A stretch of 64,000 nt of DNA from an uncultured delta proteobacterium (GCA_963745835.1 CAVUZH010000022.1:224001-288000), one strand, 5' to 3'; positions 6,668 through 25,198 are shown, counted from the first letter of the stretch. The notes: a model not told the origin generated them from the sequence alone. Made by a program: numbers and translations.

Positions 6668-7660
6668 ATGATCACGAAAATAATCAGTCGCCAGTGGTCA
6701 GCAGTCAGTTTTGCTGTTGGCGTTTTGCTGTTTCCGCTTTGCGTATCCGCTCAAAGCCAGCAAACAACGAAGCTCTACCGTATAGGATATCTAACTGGTG
6801 GCTCCCTTTCTTTTGAGGGGGCGCTCGGCCAGGGGCTGCGCGATCTTGGATACGTCGAAGGAAAAAACATCATCATTGAGCGACGCTCTGCAGACGGAAA
6901 GCTCGATCGACTAGCTACTCTCGCGGAGGAGTTAGTGCGTCTGAAGGTAGACGTCATCGTCACAGCTGGCTTGGGGACAACCGGTCCCGCACATGCAGCA
7001 ACGAAGACGATTCCTATTGTCATGACGCAGGATCAGGACCCGGTTAGTAACGGGTTTGTCGCTAGTTTGGCGCGGCCAGGCGGAAACATCACGGGGTTGT
7101 CCACTCTTGCCCCCGAGATAAGCGGAAAACGACTTGAGCTTCTGAAAGAAGTCCTCCCTAAGCTCTCGCGGGTTACCGTCCTGGGGACATCAACGAGCCC
7201 GAGCACGGCACAAGCTTTAAAGGAAACCGAACTCGCCGCAGCCGCATTTGCAGTCAATCTTCACTACCTCGATGTACGGACTTCGAAGGATGTCGGAATG
7301 GCCTTTGGAGCCGCAGCGAAAGAGCGTGCTGACGCAGTCCTAGTACTTGGGGGTCCAGTGCTCGCTTCTCAGCGATCACAGTTTCCCGATCTCGCAGTAA
7401 ACAGCCGGCTCCCGGCAATATACTGGAGGTCGGATATTGTGGAAGACGGCGGACTTATGAGCTACGGCGTGAACTTGCCCGACTTAAACCGCCGCGCCGC
7501 GACGTATGTTCACAAGATTCTCACAGGGGCGAAGCCAGGCGATTTGCCCGTGGAGCGGCCGAATAAATTCGAGCTAGTCATCAATCTGAAAGCGGCGAAG
7601 CAGATTGGTCTGGCGATTCCGCCCAACGTGCTGGCGCGAGCGGACAGGGTGATCCGGTGA
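6668..7660 (+). CDS. COG2984/ABC_sub_bind substrate-binding protein, array copy 1
   Basis: signal peptide; [62 protein letters not shown]. Confidence 0.92.
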   Translation: MITKIISRQWSAVSFAVGVLLFPLCVSAQSQQTTKLYRIGYLTGGSLSFEGALGQGLRDLGYVEGKNIIIERRSADGKLDRLATLAEELVRLKVDVIVTAGLGTTGPAHAATKTIPIVMTQDQDPVSNGFVASLARPGGNITGLSTLAPEISGKRLELLKEVLPKLSRVTVLGTSTSPSTAQALKETELAAAAFAVNLHYLDVRTSKDVGMAFGAAAKERADAVLVLGGPVLASQRSQFPDLAVNSRLPAIYWRSDIVEDGGLMSYGVNLPDLNRRAATYVHKILTGAKPGDLPVERPNKFELVINLKAAKQIGLAIPPNVLARADRVIR

Positions 7661-7718
7661 CAGCGGTCAGAGATCAGAAGTCAGACAACAGAGATCGGAA
7701 AACCCAGGACGAACAGCA

Positions 7719-8711
7719 ATGACTGAAAAAATCATTCTTCTTGCTCTATGCTCCCTTCTCCTTGCTCCATGCGCTGCCGTCGATGCGCAGCGGCCGACGA
7801 AAGTCCCGCGGATAGGGTACCTATCGAATAGCGATCCAGCTCAGGAGTCCGCCCGTTCCGAGGCCATTCGGCTGGCTCTGCGCGAGGTTGGCTACATAGA
7901 AGGACAGAACATCGCCACTGAATACCGATATGCGGAGGGAAAACCCGATCGATATCCTGAGCTTGCGGCCGAGCTGGTGGCCCTCAAGGTTGATATCATC
8001 GTGGTACCCGGAGGGGACATACAGATCAGGGCGGCCAAGGATGTGACCAAAACGATTCCCATTGTTATGGTGGGGCAAGGGCTCGATCCTGTTGAGGCAG
8101 GCCTCGTTGAAAGCCTCGCCCGTCCCGGCGGCAACGTTACCGGTGTTACAAACCTTGGCACAGATCTAGGCGGGAAGCGCCTGGAGTTGCTCAAAGAAGC
8201 CGTTCCCAAACTTTCCCGCGTCGCGGCTATTTACGCTCGCACCATTCCCCGCAGTGTACTCGAAGCGAGAGAGGTTCTCCCAGTCGCAGCGCGTGCGCTG
8301 TGGTTGACTGTTCGGTCTTGGGAAGTACGAGCTGTGGACGATTTCGACAGGGTATTCGCTGAGATCAGTAAGTGGCGTCCCGACGGACTCTACGTGCTTG
8401 GCGGCGGCGCGCTAATGCGTGCTAACGAAAAAAGGATGATCGGCTTTGCATTAAAGAGCCGGTTACCGTCTGTGTACACGACGCCAGCCGTAAATGCCGG
8501 TGGACTCATGTACTACGGGGCGGACTTCGCGGACAGCTACCGGCGCGTAGCCACCTACGTGGATAGAATCATCAAGGGCGCAAAGCCCGCGGATCTTCCC
8601 ATCGAGCAGCCGACGAAGTTTGAGTTGGTGATCAATCTGAACACGGCAAAGCAGATCGGCCTGACAATTCCGCCGAACGTGCTGGCGCGAGCGGACAAGG
8701 TGATCCGGTGA
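7719..8711 (+). CDS. COG2984 SBP, copy 2
   Basis: same motifs, intact ORF. Confidence 0.92.
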   Translation: MTEKIILLALCSLLLAPCAAVDAQRPTKVPRIGYLSNSDPAQESARSEAIRLALREVGYIEGQNIATEYRYAEGKPDRYPELAAELVALKVDIIVVPGGDIQIRAAKDVTKTIPIVMVGQGLDPVEAGLVESLARPGGNVTGVTNLGTDLGGKRLELLKEAVPKLSRVAAIYARTIPRSVLEAREVLPVAARALWLTVRSWEVRAVDDFDRVFAEISKWRPDGLYVLGGGALMRANEKRMIGFALKSRLPSVYTTPAVNAGGLMYYGADFADSYRRVATYVDRIIKGAKPADLPIEQPTKFELVINLNTAKQIGLTIPPNVLARADKVIR

Positions 8712-9739
8712 AGCGATTTTGGATTTGTCAGATTTTGGATTTTGGATTGGACGACTCCAGGAGTCAGAAAATTTTCGTCTTACTCTTGCGCGCATTGCTC
8801 TTTGCGCTTTGCTCGTCCGCCGAGGCGCAGCAGCAGGCAAAGATACCTAAGATTGGCTGGCTCGGAGTCCGTCCCGCTGCGTCAGACCCGGGCGCGAGTT
8901 ATTCGGTCGAGAGTTCCGTGAACTCGGCTATGTTGAAGGCAAGAACATAATATTCGAGTATCGATCCGCTGACGATAAGCTCGAACGGCTCCCCGCCCTG
9001 GCTGATGAATTGGTCCGTCTCAAAGTTGACGTGCTCCTCGCGTCCGTGGACGCCTGCTGCCGCTAGCCGCCAAGAACGCTACCACGTACGATCCCCATCG
9101 TTTTTTAACGGCGGCTGATCCTGTTGCGCTGGGCTGGTTGATAGCCTGGCGCGGCCTGGGGGGAACATCACAGGGTTCACCAGCATTGCGCCGGTGTTAG
9201 CTGGCAAACGACTTGAGTTACTCAAGGAAACCATTCCCAAACTCTCCCGCGTTGCGGTGCTGTGGGATCCGCAGAATCCAGGCTCTGCGCAACAATGGAA
9301 AGAAAGCCAACTGCCGGCACGAGAACTGGGTTTGCAACTTCATTCCATGGAGGTAAGCAGCGCCGACGAATTCGAGAGCGCGTTCAAAGAGGCGATTAAG
9401 GCGCGTAGCGCCGCTCTCGCCGTGATGGCGAGCCCGTTTGTCTATTCTAATCAAAAACAGATCATGGACCTGGCGACAAAAATCGATTGCCGGCGATATA
9501 CCCTCGGGAAGATTTTGTCGACAGCGGCGGCTTGATGTCCTACGGAGCCGACCGGAGCCGAATCCTTCAGGCGCGCCGCGTTGATGGTCGACAAGATTTT
9601 GAAAGGTGCCAAGCCCGCCGATCTTCCCGTGGAGCAGCCGACGAAGTTCGAGTTCGTCATCAATCTGAAAGCGGCGAAGCAGATCGGTCTGACGATTCCG
9701 CCGAACGTGCTGGCGCGGGCGGATAGGGTGATCAAGTGA
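8708..9739 (+). pseudogene. COG2984 SBP, copy 3 (several frameshifts; may be sequencing errors)
   Basis: fragments 8708-8950, 9194-9535 and 9487-9726 in different frames together cover the full paralog. Confidence 0.85.
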
Positions 9740-9777
9740 AGCTTAGGGTCACGATTTCAGACAAGGAAGCCAGACAA

Positions 9778-10821
9778 GTGATCGAAATATTTGGATCCGT
9801 TCTTCGCCTCTCAATCGACAATCTGAAATTTAAAATCGAAAATCTAAAATGGCTGTTTTCGGAATTGCTTTTATGATCGTGGCGTATGTGGGCCTAGCTC
9901 AGGCGCAGCAGCCAGCGAAAGTCCCGCCGGATAGGATACCTATCTAATACCTCCCCTTCCGTTGCTGCAGCTCCGCGTCGAGGCTTTCCGTCAGGGTCTG
10001 CGCGAGCTTGGATACGTAGAGGGGAAAAACATTGTCATTGAGTGTCGATACTGCGGAGGGAAAACTCGATCGCCTGCCCGCGCTCGTGGCTGAGCTGGTG
10101 CGTCTCAAGGTAGACGTCATCGTCACCGGTGGTCCGACAGCAACCCGTGCTGCCAAGGAAGCGACGACAACGATTCCCATTGTCATGGCGCAGGATGGCG
10201 ATCCTGTTGCAGCGGATTCGTCGCCAGCCTGGCGCGGCCTGGCGGGAACATTACTGGGCTGTCAACTCTTGCCCCGGAGATAAGCGGAAAACGACTGGAG
10301 CTTTTGAAGGAGATCGTTCCCAGGCTCTCCCGCGTGGCCGTCCTCGGGACTTCGACCGATCCGGGCAACGCACAAATTTTAAAAGAGATGAACTGGCCGC
10401 AGGCGCGTTGCGAGTGCAGCTTCAATACCTGGACGTGCTAAGTTCCAAGGATATTGAGACTGCCTTCCGAGCCGCAAGCAAGGCGCGTGCTGACGCAGTC
10501 CTCGTGCTGGCGGGTCCTGTGCTCAATTCTCAGCGAACACAGGTTGTAGAGCTCGCGGTAAAGAGCCGGCTTCCGGCGATATACAGCTAGCCAGAATTTG
10601 TGGAAGCTGGCGGGCTTATGACCTACGGCGTGAACATGAGCGACTTGGCGCGGCGCGCCGCCACCTATGTGGATAAGATTCTGAAAGGCGCCAAGCCCGC
10701 CGATCTTCCGGTGGAGCAGCCGACGAAGTTCGAGCTAGTGATCAATCTCAAAGCAGCCAAGCAGATCGGCTTGACGATTCCGCCGAATGTGCTGGCGCGG
10801 GCGGATAGGGTGATCAAGTGA
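9778..10821 (+). pseudogene. COG2984 SBP, copy 4 (frameshifts plus in-frame TAG at 10588)
   Basis: fragments 10032-10283, 10129-10590 and 10600-10821; start approximate. Confidence 0.85.
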
Positions 10822-10872
10822 CAGAGGTCAGAGAGTCAGAGGTCAGAGATCGAGAAAGCACGACGTATAGCA

Positions 10873-11863
10873 ATGACCAAGAAAATCGATTACTCCTAGG
10901 TCTATGCTCCCTGTTCTCTTGCTCCATGCACGGCAGCCGACGCACAGCAGACAGGCAAAGTCTTCCGCATAGGTTTCCTGGATCGAAGCAATGCTTCGGG
11001 CAGCGCGCTCGTCATCGATGCGTTCCGGCAAGAGATAAGCAAGCTTGGCTGGATTGAGGGAAAGAATGTCACCATCGAGTACCGGTTTGCCGAAGGAAAA
11101 ACTGACCGGCTACCTGAACTTGCGGCGGAGCTGGTTCGCTTGAAGGTGGATCTAATTGTGGTCTCAGGGAGGGCCCGGGATTGGCGGCTAAGAAAGCTAC
11201 CACTAACATTCCAATTGTGATGATGAGCTTTCCGGACCCGTAGCTGCGGGTATGGTTGCCAGTCTGGCGCGGCCGGGAGGCAATGTCACCGGGCTCTCAA
11301 GTTTAAGTCCCGAGCTAAACACTAAAAGATTAGAGATACTTAGGGATGCAGTCCCCAAGCTTTCCCGAGTTGGACTTCTGCGGCAAGTGGGAAGCCCCGA
11401 ATCAGCAGACCTCCCATTGAAAGAGCTCAGGGCTGCGGTTCCGATACTGAACCTGAAATTAGAGGAGATCGAAACTGAACCTAATGCCAAAGGATTAGAT
11501 AGCGCCTTTCAAACCGCAAAGCAGAAGCAAGTCAATGCGATTATGCAGGGCGGTGGTCGAGGCTTTTTCGGCGAAAGAAAGCGAATCGTCGAGTTTGCCG
11601 GCAAATACCGGTTCCCGGCTATTTACAATCAGAAGGAGTTTGTCGATGCGGGCGGTCTCATGTCCTATGGGGAGGACTACAATCACCTCTACCGAATCGC
11701 GGCCGTTTACGTCGACAAGATCTTGAAAGGTGCCAAACCCGCTGATTTGCCGGTGCAGCAGGCAACGAAGTTCGAATTCATCATAAATCTCAAGGCAGCA
11801 AAACAGATTGGTCTGACGATTCCGAACCGTGTGCTGGAGCGGGCGAATCAAGTGATTCAATAA
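10873..11863 (+). pseudogene. COG2984 SBP, copy 5 (frameshifted 5' half)
   Basis: AQQTGKVFRIGFLD region plus 203 aa C-terminal ORF 11252-11863. Confidence 0.85.
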
Positions 11864-11892
11864 GCGCGAGGTGGTGAGGCTTAAGGCGTGAG

Positions 11893-12889: not shown

Positions 12890-12922
12890 AACAGTGACCA
12901 GCAGTAAGAGCAGAAAAAATTG

Positions 12923-13900
12923 ATGAATAGAAAAATCGTTTGCCTTGCACAATTTGCTTTGCTCTTTGCGCTGTGCTCGGCAGAGGCGCAGCAGCAGGCA
13001 AGAGTTCCTAAGATTGGGCTTCTCAGAGCCCGTCTCGCCGCTTCAGGCACCTCGCTTGACGGATTGCTGCGAGAGCTTCGCGTATTAGGTTACATAGGAG
13101 GCAAGAACGTAATTATCGAGTCCCGATCAGCCGAGGGTAAGCTTGACTAGCTCCGCGCCCTAGCCGATGAGCTGGTCCGTCTCAGAGTAGACGTTCTTGT
13201 GACAGCCTCTTCAGTGGAAGCCGTGGCCGCCAAGAACGCTACCACGATCATTCCCATCGTCTGTTTAAACCTGGGTGATGCTGTTGGATATCGGCTAGTT
13301 GATAGCCTAGCGCGTCCCGGCGGGAACATCACGGGATTCACTGGCATTTCGGGGGAATTATCGGGCAAACGGCTGGAGTTGCTGAAGGAGACCGTGCCCA
13401 AACTCTTCCGTGTTGCGGTGCTGTGGAACCCGCTAAACCTAGGCTCTACTCAAGAATGGAAAGAAGGCCAATTGCTGGCTCGAGACCTGAGTTTGCAGCT
13501 GAGTTCAATGGAAGTAAGCAGCGCAGACAAATTCGAGGCGAGTTTCAAAGAAGCGACGAAGGCCGGTAGTGGCGCTATCGTCGTGACGCGGAGCACGCTC
13601 AACAATTCTTATCAAAAATTGATTGCGGACCTCGCGAGGAAAAATCGACTCCCAACGACAACGAGTCGTAATGATTTTATCGAGAGCGGCGGTTTGATGT
13701 CCTACGGCGCCGACCAAGCCGAGCCCTACAGGCGCACCGCAGCGATGGTCGACAAAATCCTGAAAGGCGCGAAGCCTGCAGATCTGCCTGTCGAGCAGCC
13801 AACGAAATTTGAGCTTGTGATCAATCTGAAGACGGCGAAGCAGATTGGACTGACGATTCCGCCAAGCGTGCTGGCCCGAGCGAACAAAGTGATTCAATGA
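12923..13900 (+). pseudogene. COG2984 SBP, copy 7 (single in-frame TAG at 13148)
   Basis: ORFs 12920-13150 and 13199-13900 are in the same frame. Confidence 0.85.
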
Positions 13901-15921: not shown

Positions 15922-16988
15922 TTTCGAATTTCGGAATGAGGACACGAACGATAAAAGGAATTTTGACCGGGTCGCGCTCCCGCATCAATCTAAAATCCGC
16001 ATTCCGCAATCGTAAATGCGCGATCATACTATGCTCCCTGCTTGGTGCTCCGTGCTCTGCAGCCGATGCACAGCAGCAGGCAAAGCTACCTAAGATCGGC
16101 TGGCTCGGAGCGGGTCCTGCTTCGGTGCCAGGCGGCGCAAGCGAGTTATTCCTGCAACAGCTGCGTGGACTCGGCTATGTCGACGGCAAGAATGTAGCTA
16201 TCGAGTATCGGTACGCTACTAACAAGCTTGACCGGCTCCCCGACCTGGCGGATGAACTGGTTCGTGTGAAAGTCGATCTACTCGTCGCAGGCGGGGCGAA
16301 CGCCGCCCTAGCCGCCAAAAACGCAACCAAAACGATCCCTATTGTTTTCTATAATGTGGCTTCTGATCCCGTTACGCTGGGGCTGGTTGGCGGTCTGGCA
16401 CGACCGGGAGCAAACATCACCGGGTTCACTACTATCTCTGGAGTGTTGGTCGGTAAACGGTTGGAGATACTCACGCAAACGGTTCCCAACCTCGACCGCG
16501 TTGCAGTCCTGTGGGATGCACAGAATTCAGGTTCTGCGCAACAATGGAAAGAAAGCCAACTCGCTGCGCGGGAATTAGGTCTGCGGCTTCATTCTATGAA
16601 AATCAGCAGCGCCGATAAACTCGAGAGCGCGTTCCAAGCGGCGGCGAGTGCAAGCAGCGATGCGCTCACGGTCACGCAAACTCCATTGATCACTTCACGA
16701 CGAAAACACGTCGTGGACCTGGCGGCAAAAAGTCGACTGCCGGCAATGTATCATCAGGGCGATTTTGTGGAGAGCGGTGGTTTGATGTCATATGGGACTG
16801 ATCAGACAGAACCGTACAGACGTGCCGCGTTGATGGTCGACAAAATCCTCAAAGGCGCCAAGCCCGCTGATCTCCCGGTGGAGCAACCCACGAAGTTCGA
16901 GCTGATCATCAATCTGAAAACCGCGAAGCAAATCGGCGTGACCATTCCGCCGAATGTGCTGGCGCGAGCGGACCGGGTAATTAAATGA
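15918..16988 (+). CDS. COG2984 SBP, copy 10
   Basis: intact ORF; ATGA overlap; N-terminus encoded by heptamer repeats. Confidence 0.92.
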   Translation: MISNFGMRTRTIKGILTGSRSRINLKSAFRNRKCAIILCSLLGAPCSAADAQQQAKLPKIGWLGAGPASVPGGASELFLQQLRGLGYVDGKNVAIEYRYATNKLDRLPDLADELVRVKVDLLVAGGANAALAAKNATKTIPIVFYNVASDPVTLGLVGGLARPGANITGFTTISGVLVGKRLEILTQTVPNLDRVAVLWDAQNSGSAQQWKESQLAARELGLRLHSMKISSADKLESAFQAAASASSDALTVTQTPLITSRRKHVVDLAAKSRLPAMYHQGDFVESGGLMSYGTDQTEPYRRAALMVDKILKGAKPADLPVEQPTKFELIINLKTAKQIGVTIPPNVLARADRVIK

Positions 16989-18080
16989 ATTTTGGATTTT
17001 CGAGTTGCGGATTTCCGATTGAGGACGAAGACAATGAGAACATCATTGGGTGCGATGGCTTAAATTTTTCTCCCGACAATCCAAAAATCCAAAATCGAAA
17101 ATCTACAATGGCTGGGGCTTTCTGTCATCGCTTTCGTGCTTGCACTGTGTGGGGCTGTGGCTCATGCCCAGCAGCCGCTAAAGATACCGAAGATTGGTTT
17201 TCTTGGATCCGGTCCCAGTTCCCGACCGTGGCACGAATCGTTCAAGCGAGAGTTCCGGAAACTTGGTTATGTCGACGGCAAGAACGTAACCTTTATCAAT
17301 CGATTCGCCGATACCAAGTACGACCGGCTCCCCGTCCTGGCTGATGAGCTGGTGCGTCTCAAGGTCGACGTGATCATCACGCCCGGGTCCAATGACACCG
17401 GCGCCGCCAAGAACGCCACGAAAACAATCCCCATCGTTTTTCTCGGGGCAGGCTCCGATCCTGTTGTGCTTGGGCTGGTTGACAGCCTAGCGCGACCTGG
17501 AGGCAACCTTACAGGGGTCAGCAGTATAGCCTCTGAGTTGGCTGGCAAAAGACTGGAGTTGCTCAAGGAAACCGTTCCCAAGGTTAATCGGGTCGCGGTG
17601 CTGTGGAATCCGCAGAATGCGGGCTCTACGCAAGTATGGAAAGAAAGCCAACCCGCGGCAAAGGAGCTGGATCTGCAACTTCATTCCATCGCGGTAAACA
17701 GCGCCGATCAATTAGATAGCGAGTTCAAAGGGGCAGTTAAAGCGCGTAGCGGCGCTCTCGTCGTGACCGCAGGTGCGTTGCTCACTACTAATCAAGTACA
17801 AATCATCAACCTTGCCACAAAATATCGGTTGCCGGCTATCGGCGCTGGAAGAGAATTCGTAGCCAACGGCGGGTTGATGTCCTACGGATCTGACGGTATC
17901 GAACGATACCAGCGCGCGGCGCTGATGGTCGAAAAGATTTTGAAAGGCGCTAAGCCCGCCGATCTTCCGGTGGAGCAGCCCACGAAGTTCGAGCTCGTGA
18001 TCAATTTAAAGACCGCCAAGACTCTTGGCCTGATGATTCCGCAAAACGTGTTGGCACGGACGGATAGGGTCATCAAATAA
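16985..18080 (+). CDS. COG2984 SBP, copy 11 (mature part 17136-18080 intact; probable indel in repeat-encoded leader)
   Basis: family motifs; true start uncertain. Confidence 0.85.
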
Positions 18081-18131
18081 TTTCGATTTCAGTTTGGCGA
18101 TTTTCGATTAGGAGAGACAAATGAGCAAAGC

Positions 18132-19172
18132 ATGCGGGTTCTGATTTTGGAATCCGACAATCTAAAATCCAAAATCGAAAATCCAAAATGGCTGGGGCTT
18201 TGGGTGTTCATTTTGGTGCTTGTGGTGAGTGGGGCTGTGGCCCAGGCGCAGCAGTCAAAGAAAATCCCTCGGATAGGGTATCTATCGACGCTCGATCAAG
18301 CTCGTGACTCCGGACGTTTCCAAGCAATTCGACTGGGTCTCCGCGAGCTTGGCTACATAGAAGGACAGAACATCACCATCGAGTATCGATATGCGGAGGG
18401 GAAGCAAGATCGGCTTCCAGAGCTCGTGAACGAGCTGGTGCGTCTCAAGGTTGATATCGTCGTGGTAGCAGGAGGAATCATGGGGATCAGGGCGGCCAAG
18501 AATGCGACCAAGACAATTCCTATCGTTATGGGAGGCAGTGGGATCGACCCTGTCGCGGGAGGCCTAGTTGAAAGCCTTGCCCGTCCCGGCGGCAACGTTA
18601 CCGGCATTACGAACCTTACCAGAGAACTAGGCGGTAAGCGGCTGGAGTTGCTCAAAGAAGCCGTTCCCACAGTTGTTCGTATCGCGGTTCTCCACGAGTC
18701 GGCCAATCCGGGCAGTTTACGCGAGCTGAAAGACGTTCTCCCGGTAGCGGCGCGGGCGCTGGGGTTGACGGTTCGGTCTTGGGAGATACAAGGCAGTGAC
18801 GGTTTCGAGAAGATATTCGCTGCGCTCAGTAAGGATCGCCCGGATGGACTCTACGTGACCACGAGCCCGCTAATGACGGCTAACCTGAAACGGACCGTCG
18901 GCTTTGCGTTAAAGAGCCGGTTACCATCCGTAGGCAGCAATATACAGTATGTAGAGGCCGGTGGGCTCATGTCGTACGACGCGGACCCCGCGGACAGCTA
19001 CCGGCGCGTGGCCTGGTACCTGGACAAAATCCTCAAGGGCGCCAAGCCCGCCGACCTCCCGGTCGAACAGCCGTCGAAGTTCGAGCTTGTCATGAATCTC
19101 AAGACGGCCAAGCAGATCGGTCTGGCAATCCCGCCGAATGTGCTGGCGCGGGCGGATAAGGTCATTAAATAG
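18132..19172 (+). CDS. COG2984 SBP, copy 12
   Basis: intact ORF, family motifs. Confidence 0.92.
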   Translation: MRVLILESDNLKSKIENPKWLGLWVFILVLVVSGAVAQAQQSKKIPRIGYLSTLDQARDSGRFQAIRLGLRELGYIEGQNITIEYRYAEGKQDRLPELVNELVRLKVDIVVVAGGIMGIRAAKNATKTIPIVMGGSGIDPVAGGLVESLARPGGNVTGITNLTRELGGKRLELLKEAVPTVVRIAVLHESANPGSLRELKDVLPVAARALGLTVRSWEIQGSDGFEKIFAALSKDRPDGLYVTTSPLMTANLKRTVGFALKSRLPSVGSNIQYVEAGGLMSYDADPADSYRRVAWYLDKILKGAKPADLPVEQPSKFELVMNLKTAKQIGLAIPPNVLARADKVIK

Positions 19173-19217
19173 CTCGGAGCAAGGAGCAGGGAGCTACAAA
19201 GACATGTGTGGAAACTC

Positions 19218-20207
19218 ATGAGAGGAAACTTCTACGGTCTTGCGCTTTGCGCCATGCTCTTTGCGTTTGGCCCTGGCGCGGAAGCGCAGCAGCCAACGAA
19301 AGTCCCGCGGATAGGATATCTATTGCCGGGCAACCCCGCTAGTGAGTCCACTGTTTTCGAGGCAACTCGACTGGCTCTACGCGAGCTTGGCTACATAGAA
19401 GGACAGAACATTGCCACGGAGTACCGATATGCGGAGGGGAAGCGCGATCGATTTCCTGAGCTTGCGGCCGAGCTAGTGCGTCTCAAGGTTGATGTCCTCG
19501 TGGTGGCAGGAGGGAACACACCGGTCCGGGCGGTCAAGAATGCGACCAAAACGATTCCGATCGTTATGGCGGGCGGATCCGATCCCGTCGAGGCAGGGCT
19601 GGTCGAAAGCCTCGCCCGTCCCGGCGCCAACGTCACCGGCCTTACAAACCTTGCGAGAGAACTGGGGGGGAAGCGGTTGGAGCTGCTCAAAGAAGCCGTT
19701 CCCAAACTTGCCCGTGTCGCGGTTCTCTACGATGCGGTCAATCCTTCCCATGTACGCGAGGTGAAAGAGGTTCTCCCAATGACAGCGGGTGCGCTGAAGT
19801 TGACTATTCAGCCTTGGGAGGTGCCAGACGTAGACGGTTTCGAGCGAGCATTCGCTACGTTTAAAAAGGAGCGCCCCGACGGACTGTACGTGCTCTCAGG
19901 CACACGAGTGTGGGCTATCTATAAACGGATTGCGGGCTTCGCGTTAAAGAGTCGGTTACCATCGATATACAACAACACAGAAGCTGTAGATGCTGGCGGG
20001 CTCATGTTTTATGGGGCGGACGTCGTGGACAGCTACCGTCGGGTCGCTCTCTACGTTGATAGAATTCTCAAGGGCGCTAAGCCGGCCGACCTGCCCGTGG
20101 AGCAACCGACGAAGTTCGAGCTGATCATCAATCTGAAAACCGCGAAGCAAATCGGTTTGATAATTCCGCAGTCCGTGCTCGCGCGAGCGGACAAGGTCAT
20201 TAAATAG
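19218..20207 (+). CDS. COG2984 SBP, copy 13
   Basis: intact ORF, family motifs. Confidence 0.92.
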   Translation: MRGNFYGLALCAMLFAFGPGAEAQQPTKVPRIGYLLPGNPASESTVFEATRLALRELGYIEGQNIATEYRYAEGKRDRFPELAAELVRLKVDVLVVAGGNTPVRAVKNATKTIPIVMAGGSDPVEAGLVESLARPGANVTGLTNLARELGGKRLELLKEAVPKLARVAVLYDAVNPSHVREVKEVLPMTAGALKLTIQPWEVPDVDGFERAFATFKKERPDGLYVLSGTRVWAIYKRIAGFALKSRLPSIYNNTEAVDAGGLMFYGADVVDSYRRVALYVDRILKGAKPADLPVEQPTKFELIINLKTAKQIGLIIPQSVLARADKVIK

Positions 20208-20252
20208 CTCGGAGCAAGGAGCAGCGAGCTACAAAGACATGTGTGGAAACTC

Positions 20253-21230
20253 ATGAGAAGAATCTTCTACGGTCTTGCGCTTTGCGCCATGCTCTGTGCG
20301 CTTAGCTTTCCAGTTGAGGCGCAGCAGCCGAAGAAAGTGCCGCGGATCGGATTTGTCTCCGCTGGCAATCTAGATCGACCCGGAACTCGGGTCGAGGCAT
20401 TCCGTCAGGCGCTTAATGAGATTGGTTATACGGAGGGGAAAAACATTCTGGTTGAGTATCGCCACATTAGCGGCCGAACCGATCAAATCCCACGGCTCGT
20501 TACCGAACTTGTGCAACAGAAAGTTGATGTGCTTGTCGTTAGAGCCCAACCATCGATCCGCGCGGCCAAGCAGGCCACCAAGACGATCCCCATTGTTATG
20601 GTGACAACTCAGGATCCAGTGGCGGCCGGATTCATCAACAGCTTGGCTAAGCCCGGTGGAAATATTACGGGGGTAACCACGCTCCAGCGAGAGCTAAGTG
20701 GAAAACGGCTGGAATTGTTAAAGGAGGTGCTCCCGGGAATATCGCGTGTCGCTGCTCTTATGAATGCGACCTCTATCAATGACTTCAAAATGTATGAGGC
20801 GCCTGCGCGCCATCTAAAGATACAGCTTCAATCGGTCGGGGTGCGTGGCCCTAATCCGGATCTAGAGGACGCATTCCAAGCTGCAGGAAGAGCGCGCGCT
20901 GGCGCGATCATCACGATTAGCAATGCTGTGCTTAATCCCCAGGCGGAGAAGATTGCCGAGCTTGCCATAAAGAACCGGCTGCCTTCCGTAAGTGAGCAAA
21001 GCGATTACGTCGAAGCCGGTGGTCTGATGTCGTATTCAGCGGACGAAGCTGCGAGTTACAAACGCGCTGCCATCTATGTGGACAAGATCCTGAAGGGAGC
21101 CAAGCCAGCCGATCTACCCGTTGAGCAGGCGACCGAGTTTGAGTTGGTAATCAATCTGAATACGGCAAAGCAGATTGGTCTGACGATTCCGCCCAACGTG
21201 CTGGCACGGGCGGACCGGGTGATCAAATAG
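20253..21230 (+). CDS. COG2984 SBP, copy 14
   Basis: intact ORF, family motifs. Confidence 0.92.
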   Translation: MRRIFYGLALCAMLCALSFPVEAQQPKKVPRIGFVSAGNLDRPGTRVEAFRQALNEIGYTEGKNILVEYRHISGRTDQIPRLVTELVQQKVDVLVVRAQPSIRAAKQATKTIPIVMVTTQDPVAAGFINSLAKPGGNITGVTTLQRELSGKRLELLKEVLPGISRVAALMNATSINDFKMYEAPARHLKIQLQSVGVRGPNPDLEDAFQAAGRARAGAIITISNAVLNPQAEKIAELAIKNRLPSVSEQSDYVEAGGLMSYSADEAASYKRAAIYVDKILKGAKPADLPVEQATEFELVINLNTAKQIGLTIPPNVLARADRVIK

Positions 21231-21273
21231 AAGGGAGCAAGGAGCAGGGAGCGGCAAGCACACGTGAAGAAAC

Positions 21274-22269
21274 ATGATAACAAAATTCTTTTGTCTTACC
21301 CTTAGCACTTTGCTCTTTGCACTTAGCTGTCCGGTCGAGGCGCAGCAGTCGAAGAAAATCCCTCGGATAGGTTATCTATCGCCGCTCGATCAAAGTCGCG
21401 AGTCCACCCGTGCCGGGGTAATTCGCCACGCGCTGCGCGAGCTTGGCTACATAGAAGGACAGAACATCGCCATCGAGTACCGATATGCAGAGGGGAAGCG
21501 TGATCGGTTCCCTGAACTCGCGGCCGAGTTGGTGCGTCTTAAAGTTGATGTCATCGTGGCAGCAGGAGGAGAGCCGTTGATCCGGTCTGCCAAGAATGCG
21601 ACCAAGACGATTCCCATTGTGATGACGGGCTCCGGGCCAGATCCTGTCGAGGCGGGCCTTATTGAAAACCTTGCCCGTCCAGGCGGCAACGTCACTGGGC
21701 TTACCTATCTTTCCACTGAATTAGGCGGTAAGCGGCTGGAGCTGCTCAAAGAAGCGTTAGCCAAATTGACTCATGTCGCGGTTCTCTACGATCCGGCCAC
21801 TCCGGGCACTGCACGCGAGGTCAAAGAAGACCTCCCAGTTGCAGCGCGCGCGCTGGGTTTGACGGTTCGCTCTTGGGAGGTACGAGACGCGGTCGGTTTG
21901 GAGAAAGTATTTGCTGCGCTAACCAAGGAGCGTCCGGATGGACTCTATGTGCCGCTCACGGGAGCACTAATGCGTGCTAACGGAAAACGGATTGCGGGAT
22001 TTGCGTTAAAGAGCCGGTTACCGTCCCTGTACGGCGACAAAGAAGGTGTGAACGCCGGTGGGCTCATGTACTATGGCGCGGACCTCGCGGACAGCTACCG
22101 GCGCGTCGCCACCTACGTGGACAAAATTTTAAAGGGCGCAAAGCCTGCCGATCTGCCGGTGGAGCAGCCCACAAAGTTCGAGTTGGTGATCAATCTCAAA
22201 ACGGCGAAGCAGATCGGCCTGACGATTCCGCCGAGCGTGCTGGCGAGAGCGGACAAGGTGATTAGATGA
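21274..22269 (+). CDS. COG2984 SBP, copy 15
   Basis: intact ORF, family motifs. Confidence 0.92.
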   Translation: MITKFFCLTLSTLLFALSCPVEAQQSKKIPRIGYLSPLDQSRESTRAGVIRHALRELGYIEGQNIAIEYRYAEGKRDRFPELAAELVRLKVDVIVAAGGEPLIRSAKNATKTIPIVMTGSGPDPVEAGLIENLARPGGNVTGLTYLSTELGGKRLELLKEALAKLTHVAVLYDPATPGTAREVKEDLPVAARALGLTVRSWEVRDAVGLEKVFAALTKERPDGLYVPLTGALMRANGKRIAGFALKSRLPSLYGDKEGVNAGGLMYYGADLADSYRRVATYVDKILKGAKPADLPVEQPTKFELVINLKTAKQIGLTIPPSVLARADKVIR

Positions 22270-22301
22270 AAGGCGAGTCGAATAGCTTGATGGCTTCAGC
22301 T

Positions 22302-22760
22302 TCAAAGAAAGTCGGAAAGGACCAGAACTTGAACCGCGTCGAGCCTTTTCACTCGCTTATCGTTGGTCAAAAACAATGTGGCTTCCTCCTGAATAGCAGC
22401 GGCGAGTTGCAGAGCGTCGGGCAGGCGGATCGTGTAGCGTGCCCGAATGAGCGCCGCCGTTTCCGCCAGCTTCTCGTCAATCGGCGCCATGGAAAGCGAA
22501 GAGAAAGACTTGAGCGTGAATTTGATTTCGTCGGCGAGAGCAAAGTTTTTGTCGGCGAAGGGTTTTGTCAGAATCTCGGCCAATGTCACCGACGAGGTAA
22601 CGGCGCGCAGAGCATTATTTTCCAGCAAGGTAAATACCGGATCGAGGAGATCGGCGTAGGGAGCAATATCCTCGATATAATAAATGAACGGCGCGGTATC
22701 GAGGCCGATGATCTTGTGCTTTTCGACGGCGCGGCGAAGCTTAAGCGCGTTGCCATTCAT
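22302..22760 (-). CDS. PIN-domain (VapC-like) toxin
   Basis: IGLDTAPFIYY, TSSVTLAEIL, IRLPDALQLAAA, FLTND motifs; overlaps antitoxin end. Confidence 0.9.
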   Translation of the reverse strand: MNGNALKLRRAVEKHKIIGLDTAPFIYYIEDIAPYADLLDPVFTLLENNALRAVTSSVTLAEILTKPFADKNFALADEIKFTLKSFSSLSMAPIDEKLAETAALIRARYTIRLPDALQLAAAIQEEATLFLTNDKRVKRLDAVQVLVLSDFL

Positions 22761-22989
22761 CGCGCAGCTTCTCGATATAGGCGTCGATCTTGGCTCGACT
22801 GCCCCAGGTCCCTTTGCCGAGACCGCGCAGGCGAGCCGTCGGGCTCTTGGGTTTAGGCCGGAGGACGATTTTGTCGCCTTCGACGACAGCGGCCAACCAA
22901 TCACCGGGCTTTAGTCCCAAGCTCTTACGGATCGCTTTGGAGATAACGATTTGTGACTTTTGATTGAGTTTTAGTACCGATTCCATCAT
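22741..22989 (-). CDS. AbrB/MazE/SpoVT-family antitoxin
   Basis: KSQIVISKAIRKSLGLKPGD...GDKIVLRP. Confidence 0.88.
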   Translation of the reverse strand: MMESVLKLNQKSQIVISKAIRKSLGLKPGDWLAAVVEGDKIVLRPKPKSPTARLRGLGKGTWGSRAKIDAYIEKLRDEWQRA

Positions 22990-23062
22990 GGTACTCCAAA
23001 AACCATACTTAGGGTAAATTTAACAGGCTTGGGTTACACCGTCAATCGAGCATTGTGATCAG

Positions 23063-24116
23063 ATGACAGCAGTCAGCGGTCAGCTATCAGCGGTCAGCAG
23101 GTTACCGGAGACAAAACCCGTAACGAAATCTATTCTTGTCTGGCTCCTGGCAACTATCTTTCTGCCGACTGCTCTTGTCGTCGAGGCGCAGCAGCCGAAG
23201 AAGGTCTTCCGGATAGGGTATCTATCGTCGTTCGATCCAGCTAGTCGACTCCCATGGCACCGAGGCAATTCGGTTGGCTCTGCGCGAGCGTGGCTACATC
23301 GAAGGACAGAACATCGTCTTCGAATACCGATATGCGGAGGGGAAGCTCGATCGGTTCCCTGAACTTGTGGCCGAGTTGGTGCGCCTCAAGGTTGATATCA
23401 TCGTGATAGCAGGAGGCAACGGGACGGTGCGGGCCGCCAAGAACGCGACCCAGACGATTCCCATCGTTATGGCGGGGATTCCAGCCGATCCTGTCGAGGC
23501 AGGTCTTGTTGAAAGCCTTGGCCGTCCCGGGGGAAACGTCACCGGGCCTACCTATCTTTCTACTGAATTAGGCGGTAAGCGGCTAGAACTGCTCAAAGAA
23601 GCGTTAGCCAAATTAACTCATGTCGCGGTTCTCTACGATCCCGCCACTCCGGGCACTGCACGCGAGGTCAAAGAAGACCTCCCAGTTGCAGCGCGCGCGT
23701 TGGGTTTGACGGTTCGGTCTTGGGAGGTACGAGACGCGGTCGGTTTGGAGAAGGTATTCGCTGCGCTAAGCAAGGAGCGTCCCGACGGAATCTATGTGCC
23801 TCTCACGGGCGCGCTGATGCGCGCCAACGGAAAACGGATCGCCGATTTTGCATTAAAGAGCCGGCTGCCGTCCCTCTACGGCGATAAAGAGGGTGTGAAT
23901 GCCGGTGGGCTCATCTACTATGGGGCCGACCTCGTGGACAGCTACCGGCGCATGGCCACCTACGTAGACAGAATTTTGAAGGGAGCTAAGGCCGCCGATC
24001 TGCCCGTCGAGCAGCCGACGAAGTTCGAGTTGGTGATCAATTTCAAGACGGCGAAGCAGCTCGGCCTCACTATTCCCCCTCAGTTACTGGCGCGCGCGGA
24101 CAAGGTCCTTAAATGA
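23063..24116 (+). pseudogene. COG2984 SBP, copy 16 (frameshift near 23250)
   Basis: 23063-23362 gives signal peptide and N-terminus, 23274-24116 the remainder. Confidence 0.85.
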
Positions 24117-25198
24117 TTTTCATTTTAAATTGCCGATTTTCGATTGAGGAAATAAAGCGCATGAGCAAAAGCTTTTCGCTTTTCGTTCTGCAATCTTGCT
24201 CTGACAATTTAAAACCGAAAATCCCAAATTTAAAATGCTATGGGATCGTTGTCATGGTTGTCACTTTCGTAATGTGTGGACCTGTGGCTCAGGCGCAGCA
24301 GCGCGGAAAAATGTCGCGGATCGGGATCCTGTTTTATGGCTCTCGGGATCAACCGCACCTACAATCCTTTCAGCAAGGACTATTTGATCTTGGGTATATC
24401 GAACGGAAAAACATTGCTTTTGAATACCGCTATGCGGAGGGAAACCCTGATCGTCTTGCCGCTCTCGCAGACGATTTGGTCCGGATCCCAGTCGATGTCA
24501 TCGTAACCACAACCGACCAGGGTGCCCGGGCGGCGGCCCAAGCAACGCGGACTATCCCCATCGTGTTGACAACGGGCGATCCGCTGGGCTCAGGCCTGGC
24601 TGCGACCTTGGCCAAACCCGGCGGCAATGTCACGGGGCTGACTGTGCTGTTAGCGGATTTGAGCGGGAAGCGGTTGGAGCTGCTCAAAGAGACTATTCCT
24701 GGCATTACTCGTATAGCCGTGCTGTGGAGCGCTGACAGCGCTGGTATTAGTGCTTTCAAGGAGACACAAGCGGCGGCATTGGGGTTTTCATTGCAGCTTA
24801 ACGCCTTTGAGGTCGATAGAGTCGGACAAATTGACAGGGTATTTTCAGAGATGCCGAAGGCGCGCACGCAAGCGCTGGTCGTGGTATTGAGTCCTTTAAT
24901 GACCCTCAATTCAAAGAGGATCGTAGATCTCGCGGTAAAAAATCGATTGCCTGCCATGTATGCCACCCGGCAATTTGTCGAGGAAGGTGGACTTATGGCG
25001 TACGGACCGAGTATTGGCGACTTGTATCGGCGCGCCGCTACTTATGTGGATAAAGTCTTAAAAGGTGCTGACCCGGCGGAACTCCCAGTAGAGCAGCCGA
25101 GGAAGTTTGAGTTCTTCATCAATATAAAGGCGTCAAAGCAGATCGGGCTGACGATTCCGCCCAATGTGCTGGCGCGAGCAGACAGGGTCATCAAGTAA
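24113..25198 (+). CDS. COG2984 SBP, copy 17 (alternative start 24161)
   Basis: intact ORF, family motifs. Confidence 0.92.
   Translation: MIFILNCRFSIEEIKRMSKSFSLFVLQSCSDNLKPKIPNLKCYGIVVMVVTFVMCGPVAQAQQRGKMSRIGILFYGSRDQPHLQSFQQGLFDLGYIERKNIAFEYRYAEGNPDRLAALADDLVRIPVDVIVTTTDQGARAAAQATRTIPIVLTTGDPLGSGLAATLAKPGGNVTGLTVLLADLSGKRLELLKETIPGITRIAVLWSADSAGISAFKETQAAALGFSLQLNAFEVDRVGQIDRVFSEMPKARTQALVVVLSPLMTLNSKRIVDLAVKNRLPAMYATRQFVEEGGLMAYGPSIGDLYRRAATYVDKVLKGADPAELPVEQPRKFEFFINIKASKQIGLTIPPNVLARADRVIK

Follow-up and report, generated by a model that had tools for sequence, protein, structure and literature searches.

Heptanucleotide repeat tracts at the gene junctions of a tandem PF04392 binding-protein array

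Heptamers are an over-represented class of long repeats in bacteria and polymerase slippage has been proposed as their cause (PMC4679880, PMC4692102; here and below, published systems are cited as described in the portions of the sources available to us). Among their closest described forms, the TAACTGA repeats of marine Beggiatoaceae, cyanobacteria and Bacteroidetes are heptamer direct repeats of 2-6 copies just 5' of start codons, for which a post-transcriptional role has been proposed, and heptamer repeats adjoining start codons have been proposed as translational signals (PMC4679880). The GGGAATC/GGGGATT repeats of Xanthomonas and Nostoc are intergenic heptamers, mostly of ~4 units, with conserved and free positions in each unit and with length and sequence that differ among related strains; inverted heptamer-repeat pairs have been noted in Xanthomonas, and some convergent plus/minus-strand pairs are able to form stem-loops (PMC4692102). 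A deltaproteobacterium, Geobacter metallireducens, has multicopy four- or five-fold elements made of tandem heptamers in 4-5 units (PMC2700814). The repeats known as LSSR, or as STRR in cyanobacteria, are similar, with a 7-nt unit in 3-6 degenerate tandem copies, a constant core with free positions per unit, intergenic and within-operon locations and, in the available descriptions, over-representation relative to other periods.

The DNA analysed here (the window, i.e. the whole 64-kb stretch from an uncultured delta proteobacterium) holds an array of 17 PF04392 binding-protein units of ~330 aa apiece, with Pfam E-values of 1e-32 to 1e-54 (the profile matches include fragments) and 43-70% identity between the aligned proteins. 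Frameshifts or stops break the units between 8711 and 13900 and also unit 23063-24116. A terminator-like hairpin just 5' of the array suggests that a new transcription unit begins here, and the array is interrupted by what looks like a toxin-antitoxin pair (22302..22989, minus strand), its putative antitoxin being recognised from size and position.

At the 16 junctions (J1 to J16, Table 1) the preliminary description of this locus had claimed a 7-nt periodicity, and the signal is far beyond chance. With a strict cut-off for lag-7 self-matches (at least 15/21), 12 of 12 segments fall inside 6600-25300, a region covering 29% of the window, and none elsewhere; a looser cut (14/21) places 19 of 19 in the same region, and lags other than 7 give 0-3 segments at the strict cut. 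Nearly all period-7/14/21 rows of Tandem Repeats Finder lie at array junctions, its only two matches outside the array having 2.3 copies each (at 839 and 59417), and no heptamer tracts were found in the window's other 31 gaps. In 75 related loci, whose sources are uncultured Deltaproteobacteria, Binatia and others, we counted 175 segments at lag 7 but just 26 at lag 8 and 8 at lag 5. Of the lag-7 segments, 98 fall between -260 and 0 relative to the PRIG motif conserved in PF04392 genes, a stretch that accounts for 6.5% of the bases. The four heptamer families described earlier are all present at the places named: ATTTTGG/CCAAAAT after 15921, 16988, 18080 and 24116 (with the 5' arm alone after 8711 and the 3' arm alone near 9812-9854), GGAGCAA versus TTGCKCY after 19172, 20207 and 21230, GGTCAGN/CAGCGGT at 7656-7701, 10822-10848 and 23057-23102, and a GGTGAGG-like family after 11863. 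Equivalent junctions carry many heptamers that are unrelated to one another, for example ATTTTGG, TTTTGAA, GTCAGCN, GCAGTAG, GCAAAGN, GGAGCAA and GTGATCA.

Table 1. Features of the array and its junctions (p, arm complementarity against shuffles; z, folding against shuffles).
Feature	Position	Strand	Basis and remarks
Terminator-like hairpin, 14 pairs, T-rich tail	6559..6589	+	directly upstream of array
Tandem PF04392 (ABC_sub_bind, COG2984) array	6668..25198	+	Pfam profile and alignment
First-gene heptamer tract, NNTCAGN type, in N-terminal codons	6681..6712	+	lag-7 segment; no upstream partner tract
J1 upstream tract, GGTCAGA/GATCAGA/AGTCAGA	7656..7701	+	begins at stop codon, untranslated; not complementary to downstream tract (p=0.99, z=+1.58)
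J1 downstream tract, TTGCTCY, encodes signal-peptide h-region LLALCSLLLAPC	7740..7776	+	lag-7 segment
J2 upstream tract, GATTTTG type	8715..8750	+	without complementary partner
J2 h-region tract, TTGCGCT type	8787-8822	+	sequence
J3 downstream tract, AAATCNA, encodes NLKFKIENLKW, broken unit	9812..9854	+	z=+0.98; upstream arm degenerate
J4 upstream tract, CAGAGGT type	10822..10848	+	69-79% identical to J1; the two J4 tracts not complementary
J5 upstream arm, GGTGAGG-like	11864..11886	+	pairs with 11943-11971, end of next signal peptide; z=-2.29, 2/200 shuffles (trimmed), z=-2.56 in longer junction window
J6 inverted repeat, 12906-12922 vs 12950-12966 (14/17)	12906..12966	+	brackets start at 12924; h-region tract 12953-12980; p=0.06, z=-0.45
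J9 module	15922..16018	+	arm 15928-15942 pairs with 15996-16010, 13/15; p=0.004; z=+0.22
J10 module	16985..17113	+	arms 16985-17020 (ATTTTGG type) and 17073-17113 (CCAAAAT type), 20/25, p=0.004; z=-2.43; SD and ATG in loop; frame broken at A-run
J11 module	18081..18194	+	upstream arm 18081-18110; downstream arm 18149-18194 encodes NLKSKIENPKW; perfect 11-nt match between arms, p=0.008; z=-1.35
J12 module	19167..19268	+	GGAGCAA tract 19167-19199; TTGCGCY h-region tract 19237-19268; p=0.034; z=-2.53
J13 module	20205..20303	+	z=-1.33
J14 module	21224..21335	+	GGAGCAA tract 21224-21262; CTTTGCN tract 21295-21335; z=-2.93, 1/200 shuffles
PIN-domain ORF within array	22302-22904	-	PF01850 E=2.4e-14
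Small ORF beside PIN-domain ORF	22741-22989	-	ORF call
J15, CAGCGGT tract 23057-23102, here translated as MTAVSGQLSAVS	23057..23173	+	Tandem Repeats Finder and ORF call; short complement 23164-23173 in h-region, 9/10, p=0.14; z=-1.65
J16 module	24117..24238	+	upstream arm 24121-24145, loop ATG 24161, downstream arm 24213-24237; 21/25, p=0.002; z=-3.42, 0/200 shuffles

Throughout the 75 related loci a recurrent order is seen: stop codon, heptamer tract, SD with start codon, and a further heptamer tract within the codons for the signal peptide. A junction module comprising a stop, a 25-45-nt tract of 3-5 degenerate heptamers that fills the spacer, SD plus start and a signal peptide is well supported, and equally so that the n-region or h-region of this signal peptide is encoded by a heptamer tract that is often reverse-complementary to the first. 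In the window and its relatives, 30 of 40 upstream tracts begin 0-5 nt from the stop, in line with the initial claim that the runs start there; 23 of the 40 end 10-24 nt before the start codon, and the commonest start of the downstream tract is 20-29 nt past it (7/22). The same junction sequences bear out that the start codon lies in the loop. As for translation of the repeats, the claim stands for the downstream arm, with NLKSKIENPKW and LCSLLLAPC in reading frames, and not for the upstream arm, which is normally untranslated because SD and ATG come after it; J9 and J16 are the only junctions whose ATGA-overlap frames are open through that arm, and those of relatives are not. Cysteine makes up 4.1% of h-region residues (167 genes) as opposed to 0.0% of the mature parts, which argues for nucleotide-driven coding of the h-region.

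Whether the two tracts pair as a hairpin around the next start, as had been proposed, has an answer that divides the junctions about in half. Arm complementarity (ungapped, against 500 dinucleotide shuffles, 16 junctions) reaches p<=0.01 at J9, J10, J11 and J16 (4/16) and, leaving J12 and J6 aside, is not significant against shuffles at the 10 others. When junctions were folded after trimming to the stretch that begins at the stop and closes with the 3' arm (14 junctions, 200 shuffles each), at most 4/200 shuffles did as well at J5, J10, J12, J14 and J16 (5/14); J11, J13 and J15 gave z of -1.3 to -1.65, and in all 8 junctions with z<-1.3 the best fold is a long-range stem. Because the trimmed windows were chosen so as to stop at the arms, they are biased towards the stem; longer junction windows gave weaker z-scores. 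Conversely, 6 of the 14 trimmed junctions fold no better than shuffles, z is above 0 at J1, J3, J4 and J9, and J1-J4, J7 and J8 carry no hairpin signal.

Across the related loci, same-junction tract pairs are reverse-complementary in 12 of 29 cases and match directly in 1 of 29, with 4.2 +/- 1.7 reverse-complementary pairs expected from partner shuffling (maximum 10 in 1000). Over 132 junctions, arms form a stronger duplex with their cognate partners than with non-cognate ones (Wilcoxon p=3e-4), with 18 in the top 5% versus 6.4 expected, whereas in the window alone cognate arms do no better than other junctions' arms (ranks 4-40 of 40). A 21-pair stem recurs in 11/11 aligned class-I junctions from 9 genomes, its consensus being weak (-7.8 kcal/mol). 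Only 1 pair of this consensus has changed on both sides, and its covariation term comes out positive. Most mismatches of the 11 best stems (24/37) are of transversion type, with no G·U bias (5 G·U-type vs 8 A·C-type), and in 10/11 class-I junctions a 'GCC' unit is present in either the upstream or the downstream arm but never in both. Exact pairing is supported neither by covariation nor by G·U bias. The notion that period and structure are kept while sequence is not thus survives across families (unrelated heptamers; 12/29 pairs vs 4.2 expected) and does not within one family (1/21 double change, no G·U bias).

Comparison of modules points to turnover and exchange. Between two related loci (L017 and L018) the two arms are ~95% conserved as against ~45% for loop and flanks, and the same A/G difference recurs in three successive units, a concerted, slippage-type change. 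Whole class-I modules share 70-74% identity between genomes, and their loops, which are homologous, have diverged in parallel with the genes (51-59% within the window). A junction in another locus (L056) matches the J9 module at 90% identity over 113 nt; this locus follows J9 (90%) up to the h-region and then window 19278-20003 (94.8%), and J13 is 94% identical to J12 over 99 nt but the downstream genes are only ~51% identical (protein). In 13 of 15 gene pairs at least 80% identical, homology is lost 7-23 nt before the PRIG anchor; spacers of pairs chosen by downstream-gene similarity are barely more alike than random ones (0.40 vs 0.35). These alignments show that junction modules have been exchanged separately from the mature genes, and the breakpoints lie in the h/c-region of the signal peptide. 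This separate exchange is the part of an earlier recombination proposal that holds; its attC-like sites (see below) do not.

That the tracts belong to the known, unexplained heptanucleotide repeat class of bacteria (LSSR/STRR type) is well supported, and so is the view that what is new here is their arrangement in pairs, in which one arm has been co-opted for coding. What they do is another matter, and the explanation we prefer, albeit tentatively, is a weak intercistronic RNA stem that holds the start site in its loop and whose function we infer. According to it, replication slippage would make and turn over the 7-nt units, template switching or inter-tract recombination would generate the inverted copy, and the arms would pair on the polycistronic transcript as a weak, mismatch-interrupted, long-range stem. 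The foot of this stem would adjoin the upstream stop codon and its loop of ~35-90 nt would expose the ribosome-binding site and start codon of the next gene. Such a clamp might shield each paralogue's initiation region from neighbouring coding RNA and might also link initiation with termination or processing events at the stop codon before it; as putative roles for the junctions, RNA processing and translational coupling are both plausible. The repeats could moreover serve as microhomology by which whole 'start modules' (spacer, RBS, signal peptide) are swapped among paralogues.

Somewhat unlikely, to our minds, yet to be taken seriously is that the tracts are a roleless, non-adaptive by-product, namely slippage microsatellites with template-switch inverted copies that survive only in unconstrained spacers and signal-peptide codons. 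Active expansion is evident from the long perfect heptamer arrays of L072, covariation and G·U bias are both absent, closely related genes have unrelated spacers, and Cys-rich signal peptides seem dictated by the repeat rather than driven by the protein. Many junctions have one tract or none (a single detectable tract in 56 of 81 tract-bearing junctions, none at all at J7 and J8), and high-GC relatives lack tracts. Furthermore, 55 of the 175 tracts in related genomes lie between unrelated genes, the flanking ORFs including ETF, acyl-CoA dehydrogenase, hydantoinase A/B, PGK-PK and others. By the preliminary description's own criterion, hairpins just as common at unrelated intergenic sites would count against its proposal; similar tracts and hairpins do occur at such sites in related genomes but they are ~4-fold less dense there than at PF04392 junctions (18/251 vs 43/151 gaps), with none in the other gaps of the window. 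This difference in density is hard to reconcile with a by-product, as are reverse-complement partners at 3x the expected number with direct ones nearly absent, the exact filling of the stop-to-SD spacer by the tract, arms that form ~95% identity islands in otherwise diverged non-coding DNA, and the identity of whole class-I modules across genomes.

A small mobile palindromic element (MITE-, REPIN- or SDR-like), with heptamer tracts as terminal inverted repeats, inserting between genes and sometimes supplying RBS and N-terminus, seems improbable. It would suit the size of 100-170 nt, the conserved arms around a diverged interior in differing contexts (L017 vs L018), the J9 module joined to a different gene in L056 and the near-identity of J12 and J13 between diverged genes, and still smaller hairpin inserts, which resemble small dispersed repeats of cyanobacteria, are found within tracts of relatives. 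However, there is no associated transposase (the window's only one is a split Mutator-family gene 35 kb away), target-site duplications were not seen, class-I loops are homologous and diverge with their genes, and each of the many heptamer families would require a separate element.

We regard as distinctly improbable that the tracts are 7-nt-register arrays of binding sites for a single-strand RNA/DNA-binding protein (cold-shock-domain protein, S1 or CsrA). Each heptamer family does have a constant 4-6-nt core with 1-3 free positions per unit, several upstream families repeat GGA or AGG every 7 nt, binding sites have been proposed for TAACTGA repeats (PMC4679880) and Geobacter heptamer sets are annotated as putative global regulator sites (PMC2700814). 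Yet at least 8 unrelated cores occupy equivalent positions, so that a single protein cannot read them all, the reverse-complement partner is left unexplained, and no candidate protein was identified.

Phase variation, in which gain or loss of 7-nt units in a translated tract would shift the frame and switch paralogues on or off, is highly improbable. Although 7 is not divisible by 3, the repeats fall within 5' coding sequence and several units have broken frames near their tracts (J10, J11), the breaks at those two junctions are single-base changes in A-runs rather than unit changes and the remaining ones lie in gene bodies; repeat units match imperfectly (68-91%), their runs are short at 2.7-4.6 copies, and the homologous tracts compared show no copy-number difference. 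Lastly, an integron-type cassette system with attC-like single-strand recombination sites is largely refuted and deserves next to no credence: family-level structure-not-sequence logic, module exchange and a toxin-antitoxin pair inside the array (such pairs occur within chromosomal integrons too) would fit, but the reading fails each testable defining feature, with core motifs missing at 16/16 junctions, no integrase among 43 ORFs scanned, units that are all paralogues of one family, one arm within the next gene, which excision would therefore truncate, and breakpoints after the 3' arm instead of within a core.

Set against known systems, the junctions resemble integron attC sites in that imperfect inverted repeats follow the genes of an array lying on one strand and in that structure is conserved more than sequence, and differ in lacking core motifs and integrase, in their one-family cassettes and in one coding arm. 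REP/BIME, ERIC, Correia-type MITEs and Rickettsia palindromic elements are likewise transcribed intercistronic palindromes of ~30-150 nt, some directly after stops or in-frame inside genes, and influence mRNA stability or translation; they differ in having a conserved family sequence (REP with a dedicated transposase) and, to our knowledge, are not made of 7-nt repeats. As for heptamer systems, the reverse complement of TAACTGA resembles the TCAGNNN units found here, but those repeats have one sequence and one orientation, overlap the RBS position and, in the available text, are untranslated and without complementary partner (PMC4679880). The GGGAATC/GGGGATT repeats differ in being G-rich and studied as quadruplex formers, and are described there as non-coding, without a tie to stops or starts in paralogue arrays (PMC4692102). 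The window's GGTCAGA/GATCAGA units, taken as reverse complements, come close to the MTYCTGA consensus in Geobacter metallireducens, although the Geobacter elements are annotated as putative regulator sites or RNA elements, and the portion available links them neither to binding-protein arrays nor to signal peptides (PMC2700814). In a Nostoc hyp-operon spacer, ttgtcag repeats with a ctgac-containing partner nearby (PMC2408588) recall the NNGTCAG-type units of J1, J4, J15 and L009. Compared with LSSR/STRR as far as described, the start codon here stands between two oppositely oriented tracts, of which the upstream one is anchored at the stop codon before it and the downstream one codes for signal peptide, and the hosts are uncultured Deltaproteobacteria- and Binatia-like lineages.

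Our findings bear out the claim of the preliminary description that the array junctions are built on a period of seven nucleotides. Scanning the window for segments that match themselves at a 7-nt offset (lag 7, at least 15/21 self-matches) gave 12, all inside the array, which covers 29% of the window, and none outside, as opposed to 0-3 at the other lags from 2 to 13 and at lag 15, and 11 at lag 14; with a 14/21 cut, 19 of 19 lag-7 segments lay inside the array. Tandem Repeats Finder placed nearly all rows of period 7, 14 or 21 at array junctions, those of period 7 having 2.7-4.6 copies with 68-91% matches, and the four heptamer families that had been named are present at the positions assigned to them. 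With a degenerate 7-nt tandem unit in at least three copies and a period 7 that exceeds its neighbouring periods, in the window as well as in related loci, the repeats have two of the defining features of LSSRs/STRRs, and the junction tracts (runs of degenerate heptamers, also called arms) are a variant of this known class of heptanucleotide repeats.

The units flanking these junctions (J1-J16, numbered 5' to 3') all belong to one family, the PF04392/ABC_sub_bind (COG2984) binding proteins, of about 330 aa each and 43-70% identical to each other. Intact units match the Pfam profile with E-values of 1e-32 to 1e-54, and broken ones are covered by profile fragments. Since a scan of the array showed no excess of terminator-like or promoter-like sites at the junctions, a single polycistronic transcript is plausible from the sequence. 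Nucleotide identity among the units averages 75% in their last 170 nt versus 55% in gene bodies and 36% in junctions, the final 58 residues being almost invariant. At two junctions, J10 (break near 17085) and J11 (near 18127), the frame is lost through single-base differences in A-runs, so that some of the split genes in the window may be homopolymer assembly errors and not pseudogenes.

Features of the window in and around the binding-protein array
Feature	Position	Strand	Remark
Strong terminator-like hairpin	6559-6589		precedes the array
PF04392 array	6668-25198	+	17 units, head-to-tail
Split array units	8711-13900; 23063-24116		four units with frameshifts or stops
Terminator-like site	20283-20300		inside J13 downstream tract
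PIN-domain gene and small upstream ORF	22302-22989	-	toxin-antitoxin-like pair; interrupts the same-strand array
Lone extra PF04392 gene	26731-27729		outside the array
Split multi-GAF sensor kinase region	28625-35303
Split Mutator-family transposase	59432-60723

A profile-guided scan with one genome per species yielded 75 related loci (L001-L075, 933 kb), mostly from MAGs labelled Deltaproteobacteria, Syntrophobacter(aceae), Binatia, Rokubacteria, Methylomirabilia, Pyrinomonadaceae and others, the best PF04392 identity among the scanned genomes being 74%. These loci contain 175 lag-7 segments (at least one in 45/75 loci), the comparison lags 5, 8 and 10 yielding 8, 26 and 16, respectively, and 98 of the 175 lie no more than 260 nt upstream of PRIG, a conserved motif of PF04392 genes used here as an anchor, although this zone makes up 6.5% of the bases and holds only 4/87 segments at control lag 6 and 1/85 at lag 9. 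The 160 junctions that we read share a common plan, in which the stop codon is followed by a heptamer tract, an SD sequence with ATG and a signal peptide that carries a second tract. Upstream tracts mostly begin 0-5 nt from the stop (30/40) and often end 10-24 nt before the start (23/40), and the commonest bin for the beginning of downstream tracts is 20-29 nt past the start codon (7/22). In class I (ATTTTGG/CCAAAAT, TTTTGAA/TTCAAAA) the downstream tract encodes the basic n-region, in class II (GTCAGCN/NGCTGAC, GCAGTAG/CTACTGC, GCAAAGN/NCTTTGC, GGAGCAA/TTGCTCC, GTGATCA/TGATCAC) the hydrophobic core. Consistent with codons imposed by TTGCKCY-type repeats, cysteine accounts for 4.1% of signal-peptide h-region residues versus 0.0% in mature parts (167 genes from tract-bearing low-GC loci) and for 1.1% in the h-regions of 53 high-GC relatives, so that the repeat, judged from these codons, appears to dictate signal-peptide residues. 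High-GC relatives (L068, L032, L039, L030 and others with GC of at least 0.61) differ in that stop and start overlap (TGATG) in junctions of 80-95 nt, RR motifs (MDRRRFLL...) mark the N-termini and heptamer tracts are almost absent.

The companion claim, that these repeats form hairpins around the start of the next gene, holds for about half of the window junctions and not for every one of them. Comparing the 45 nt that follow each stop codon with the remainder of the junction, against 500 dinucleotide shuffles, gave significant arm complementarity (p<=0.01) at J9, J10, J11 and J16 (4/16), marginal values at J12 (p=0.034) and J6 (p=0.06) and none above shuffles at the other ten. Folds that ran from the stop codon through the downstream arm, a trimming that favours the stem, beat at least 196/200 shuffles for J16, J14, J12, J10 and J5 (z -3.4 to -2.3), reached z -1.65 to -1.33 for J15, J11 and J13, and were no better than shuffles for J2, J6, J9, J4, J3 and J1; longer windows scored more weakly. 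Minimum free energies of whole junctions, mostly non-significant against shuffles because the windows took in flanking coding RNA, were superseded by the arm-to-arm tests and trimmed folds. At J1 and J4 the two tracts (GGTCAGA and TTGCTCC) are not complementary, and J7 and J8 have no heptamer tracts.

That the two tracts of a junction are nonetheless partners is indicated by 29 same-junction pairs, 12 of which are reverse complements (at least 6/7) and one a direct match, as compared with 4.2 +/- 1.7 reverse complements (maximum 10 in 1000) when partners were shuffled. Over 132 junctions cognate duplexes are stronger than non-cognate ones (mean -24.5 vs -21.9 kcal/mol, Wilcoxon p=3e-4), with 18 in the top 5% versus 6.4 expected; window junctions rank only 4-40 of 40 in this comparison and the signal thus comes mainly from the relatives. 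Base by base the picture differs. The 11 best stems showed no G·U bias (5 mismatches of G·U type versus 8 of A·C type), which fails to support pairing of sense-strand RNA by this measure, and 24/37 of their mismatches are transversion-type. A long-range stem of 21 pairs is common to eleven class-I junctions, which come from nine genomes and are readily aligned. We found a double change at 1/21 of its pairs (consensus -7.8 kcal/mol, covariation term +0.97), a test that says little because the pairs are nearly invariant, and a 'GCC' unit is carried by the upstream arm in seven class-I sequences, by the downstream arm in three and by both arms in none. Mismatch pattern, invariant stem and one-sided 'GCC' unit together suggest that the arms keep family identity rather than exact complementarity, and these comparisons give no evidence of base-by-base selection on pairing. 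This is what the main rival explanation, which sees the tracts as tolerated by-products without function, would lead one to expect, and we rate that rival only a little below the reading that we favour. Whole arms of the same junction do co-vary at the level of heptamer families.

Sequence comparisons also show that junction modules have recombined in the past apart from the mature genes. Thus, L056:2580-3305 equals window 19278-20003 at 94.8% (726 nt), and upstream of 2580 the locus follows J9, not J12, with the switch in the h/c-region beside a TGCTCCN tract (J9 vs L056: 90% over 113 nt, blastn). Over L056:2380-3305, compared with window 15861-16140 and 19112-20003, this contig (3.3 kb, from a MAG labelled Binatia) is a chimera when set against the window. 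Over 99 nt J12 agrees with J13 at 94%, between genes with about 51% protein identity, and junction families do not track the subfamily of either flanking gene. Of 15 pairs that are at least 80% identical in their first 300 mature nt, 13 lose homology 7-23 nt before the PRIG anchor. So the idea of recombination at the junctions stands as past module exchange, if not as an attC-type site (see below); orthology being unprovable from fragments, the data speak to the occurrence of exchange and not to its rate. As for the tracts themselves, constraint and turnover are both in evidence. Constraint shows in L017 and L018, which have both arms about 95% identical, loop and flanks about 45% and different genomic contexts, and in the class-I modules of the window, which have counterparts in other genomes at 70-74% identity (130-178 nt), as well as in the J9 match to L056. 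Between L017 and L018 an identical A/G difference repeated in three successive units is the mark of concerted, slippage-type turnover. An apparent constraint on spacers, seen in pairs chosen by junction similarity, was set aside as biased selection: spacers of 139 pairs chosen by the downstream mature gene were near random (identity 0.40 vs 0.35 +/- 0.12). Long near-perfect arrays, indicative of active expansion, follow most stops in one MAG contig, L072 (14123-14281 and eight more sites, up to 158 nt) and include back-to-back inverted sets.

The enrichment at COG2984 junctions that had been put forward as a check was found within the gaps counted, at about 4-fold, but is not exclusive. By a crude count of gaps in related low-GC loci, tracts occur in 43/151 PF04392-adjacent gaps vs 18/251 others, and in the window in 4/12 vs 0/31. 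Of the 175 tracts found in relatives, 55 lie apart from PF04392 genes, and Pfam families other than PF04392 were assigned to 37 of the 44 flanking ORFs scanned, among them ETF subunits, acyl-CoA dehydrogenase, hydantoinase A/B, PGK, pyruvate kinase, MoCo-binding subunits, dCache sensor kinases and NMT1 and TctC binding proteins. At several of these sites (L072, L027, L036, L006) two inverted tracts stand side by side in the interval from a stop to the following start. GAF and histidine-kinase genes lie downstream of the window's array, and dCache-HAMP histidine kinases follow binding-protein arrays at L001:3729-5622, L013:15747-18713 and L042:15078-17495, the first two with an AAAATCN heptamer tract at the N-terminus and the third with a GGCAAAA-type tract about 165 nt upstream of its start.

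Small inserts accompany the tracts in several relatives. One, hairpin-like and about 25 nt long with a CCTGAGC...GTCGAAG core, lies within tracts at L020:3154-3305, L011:2193-2415, L064:2921-3094 (in both arms), L025:1896, L009:1167 and L018:2271, sometimes in frame within N-terminal codons; its strict core has eight matches (L002, L004 twice, L009, L018, L020, L025, L052), five of them in tracts, and looser copies in L020:3154, L011 and L064 were spotted by eye. We take it to resemble small dispersed repeats of cyanobacteria. A second, GCGGCCCCGCAGAC, occurs at L026:10197, L027:5408/8388/10561, L050:13376 and L061:1267, with five of the six matches in or beside AAAATCC-type tracts and L027:10561 adjoining a TCTGAC-type tract. 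Two junctions (L002:452-665, L013:14177-14392) carry inserted palindromes that are G+C-rich, of type CCCTC...GGGAGAGGG, beside heptamer tracts.

The reading that we favour, albeit tentatively, is that the tracts arise through slippage and template switching and on the transcript would form weak long-range stems, the foot touching the upstream stop and the loop presenting the next start site, and that the repeats may also promote the swapping of start modules among paralogues. A bolder version, improbable as it stands, has the paired tracts delimit exchangeable 'start modules' (spacer, RBS and signal peptide), the repeats acting both as an RNA clamp that sets translation and as recombination-prone microhomology; if true, it would amount to an integrase-free, cassette-like re-wiring of expression and export in a large paralogue family and to a first function for heptanucleotide repeats of many bacterial phyla. 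Apart from these options, a fixed, testable anatomy of heptanucleotide repeats emerges from the array together with some 160 homologous junctions of relatives, with one tract pinned between the stop and the next RBS and its mirror image read as a signal peptide. The case also shows that coding sequence for signal peptides can be recruited from microsatellite DNA and that the start modules of paralogues follow an evolution and recombination of their own, apart from the mature proteins. Should the stems be inert, it would still document slippage-prone repeats shaping the spacers of operons in soil and sediment lineages about which little is known.

Among known systems, integrons have a tyrosine-recombinase integrase next to the array, and their cassettes are of unrelated functions with the site wholly downstream of the ORF, whereas here all units are PF04392 and the ORF that follows contains the 3' arm. 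Neither of the conserved 7-nt cores that stand at the two ends of an attC inverted repeat occurs in any of the 16 junctions, and no integrase family was seen among the ORFs scanned (43 of the 63 listed for the 64-kb window, each at least 150 aa), so that the attC-like logic once suggested for the hairpins is very unlikely to apply. REP/REPIN elements form a conserved palindrome family, unlike arms that differ in sequence between junctions, and the window has no Y1 (RAYT) transposase. Intrinsic terminators, with their G+C-rich stem and T-run, do not describe the junction hairpins, none of which is among the 15 terminator-like sites in the scan (shuffles give 19.7), and Rfam 15 gave no match at gathering score in the whole window. 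The compensatory base-pair changes across homologues that mark structured cis-regulatory RNAs in general are all but missing from the class-I stem. Nor do upstream tracts serve as stop codons in all three frames (the +1 frame of J1 runs open into the next gene) or as tandem SD-like GGA every 7 nt, which is true for some families only and not for GTCAGNN, GCAGTAG and TTGAATG.

Closer parallels come from the heptanucleotide repeats themselves, which are reported to be the most over-represented long simple repeats of many bacteria, with slippage proposed as their cause and no function assigned for decades (PMC4679880, PMC4692102). Described examples are TAACTGA repeats that directly precede start codons in Beggiatoaceae, for which a translational role was proposed (PMC4679880), GGGAATC repeats of Xanthomonas that at times form convergent pairs (PMC4692102), four- and five-fold heptamer elements of Geobacter metallireducens, one with consensus MTYCTGA (PMC2700814), and a Nostoc operon spacer with ttgtcag repeats and a ctgac-containing partner (PMC2408588). 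Our junction units overlap the TAACTGA, GGGAATC, MTYCTGA and ttgtcag families. In the literature searched we found no description of PF04392 array junctions or of a paired, start-bracketing and partly translated heptamer arrangement; the repeat class is known and the paired, start-bracketing arrangement is new. The nearest analogue of the junction tracts is presumably the cyanobacterial STRRs together with the small hairpin elements inserted into them, and matching inserts do occur inside the tracts of related loci.
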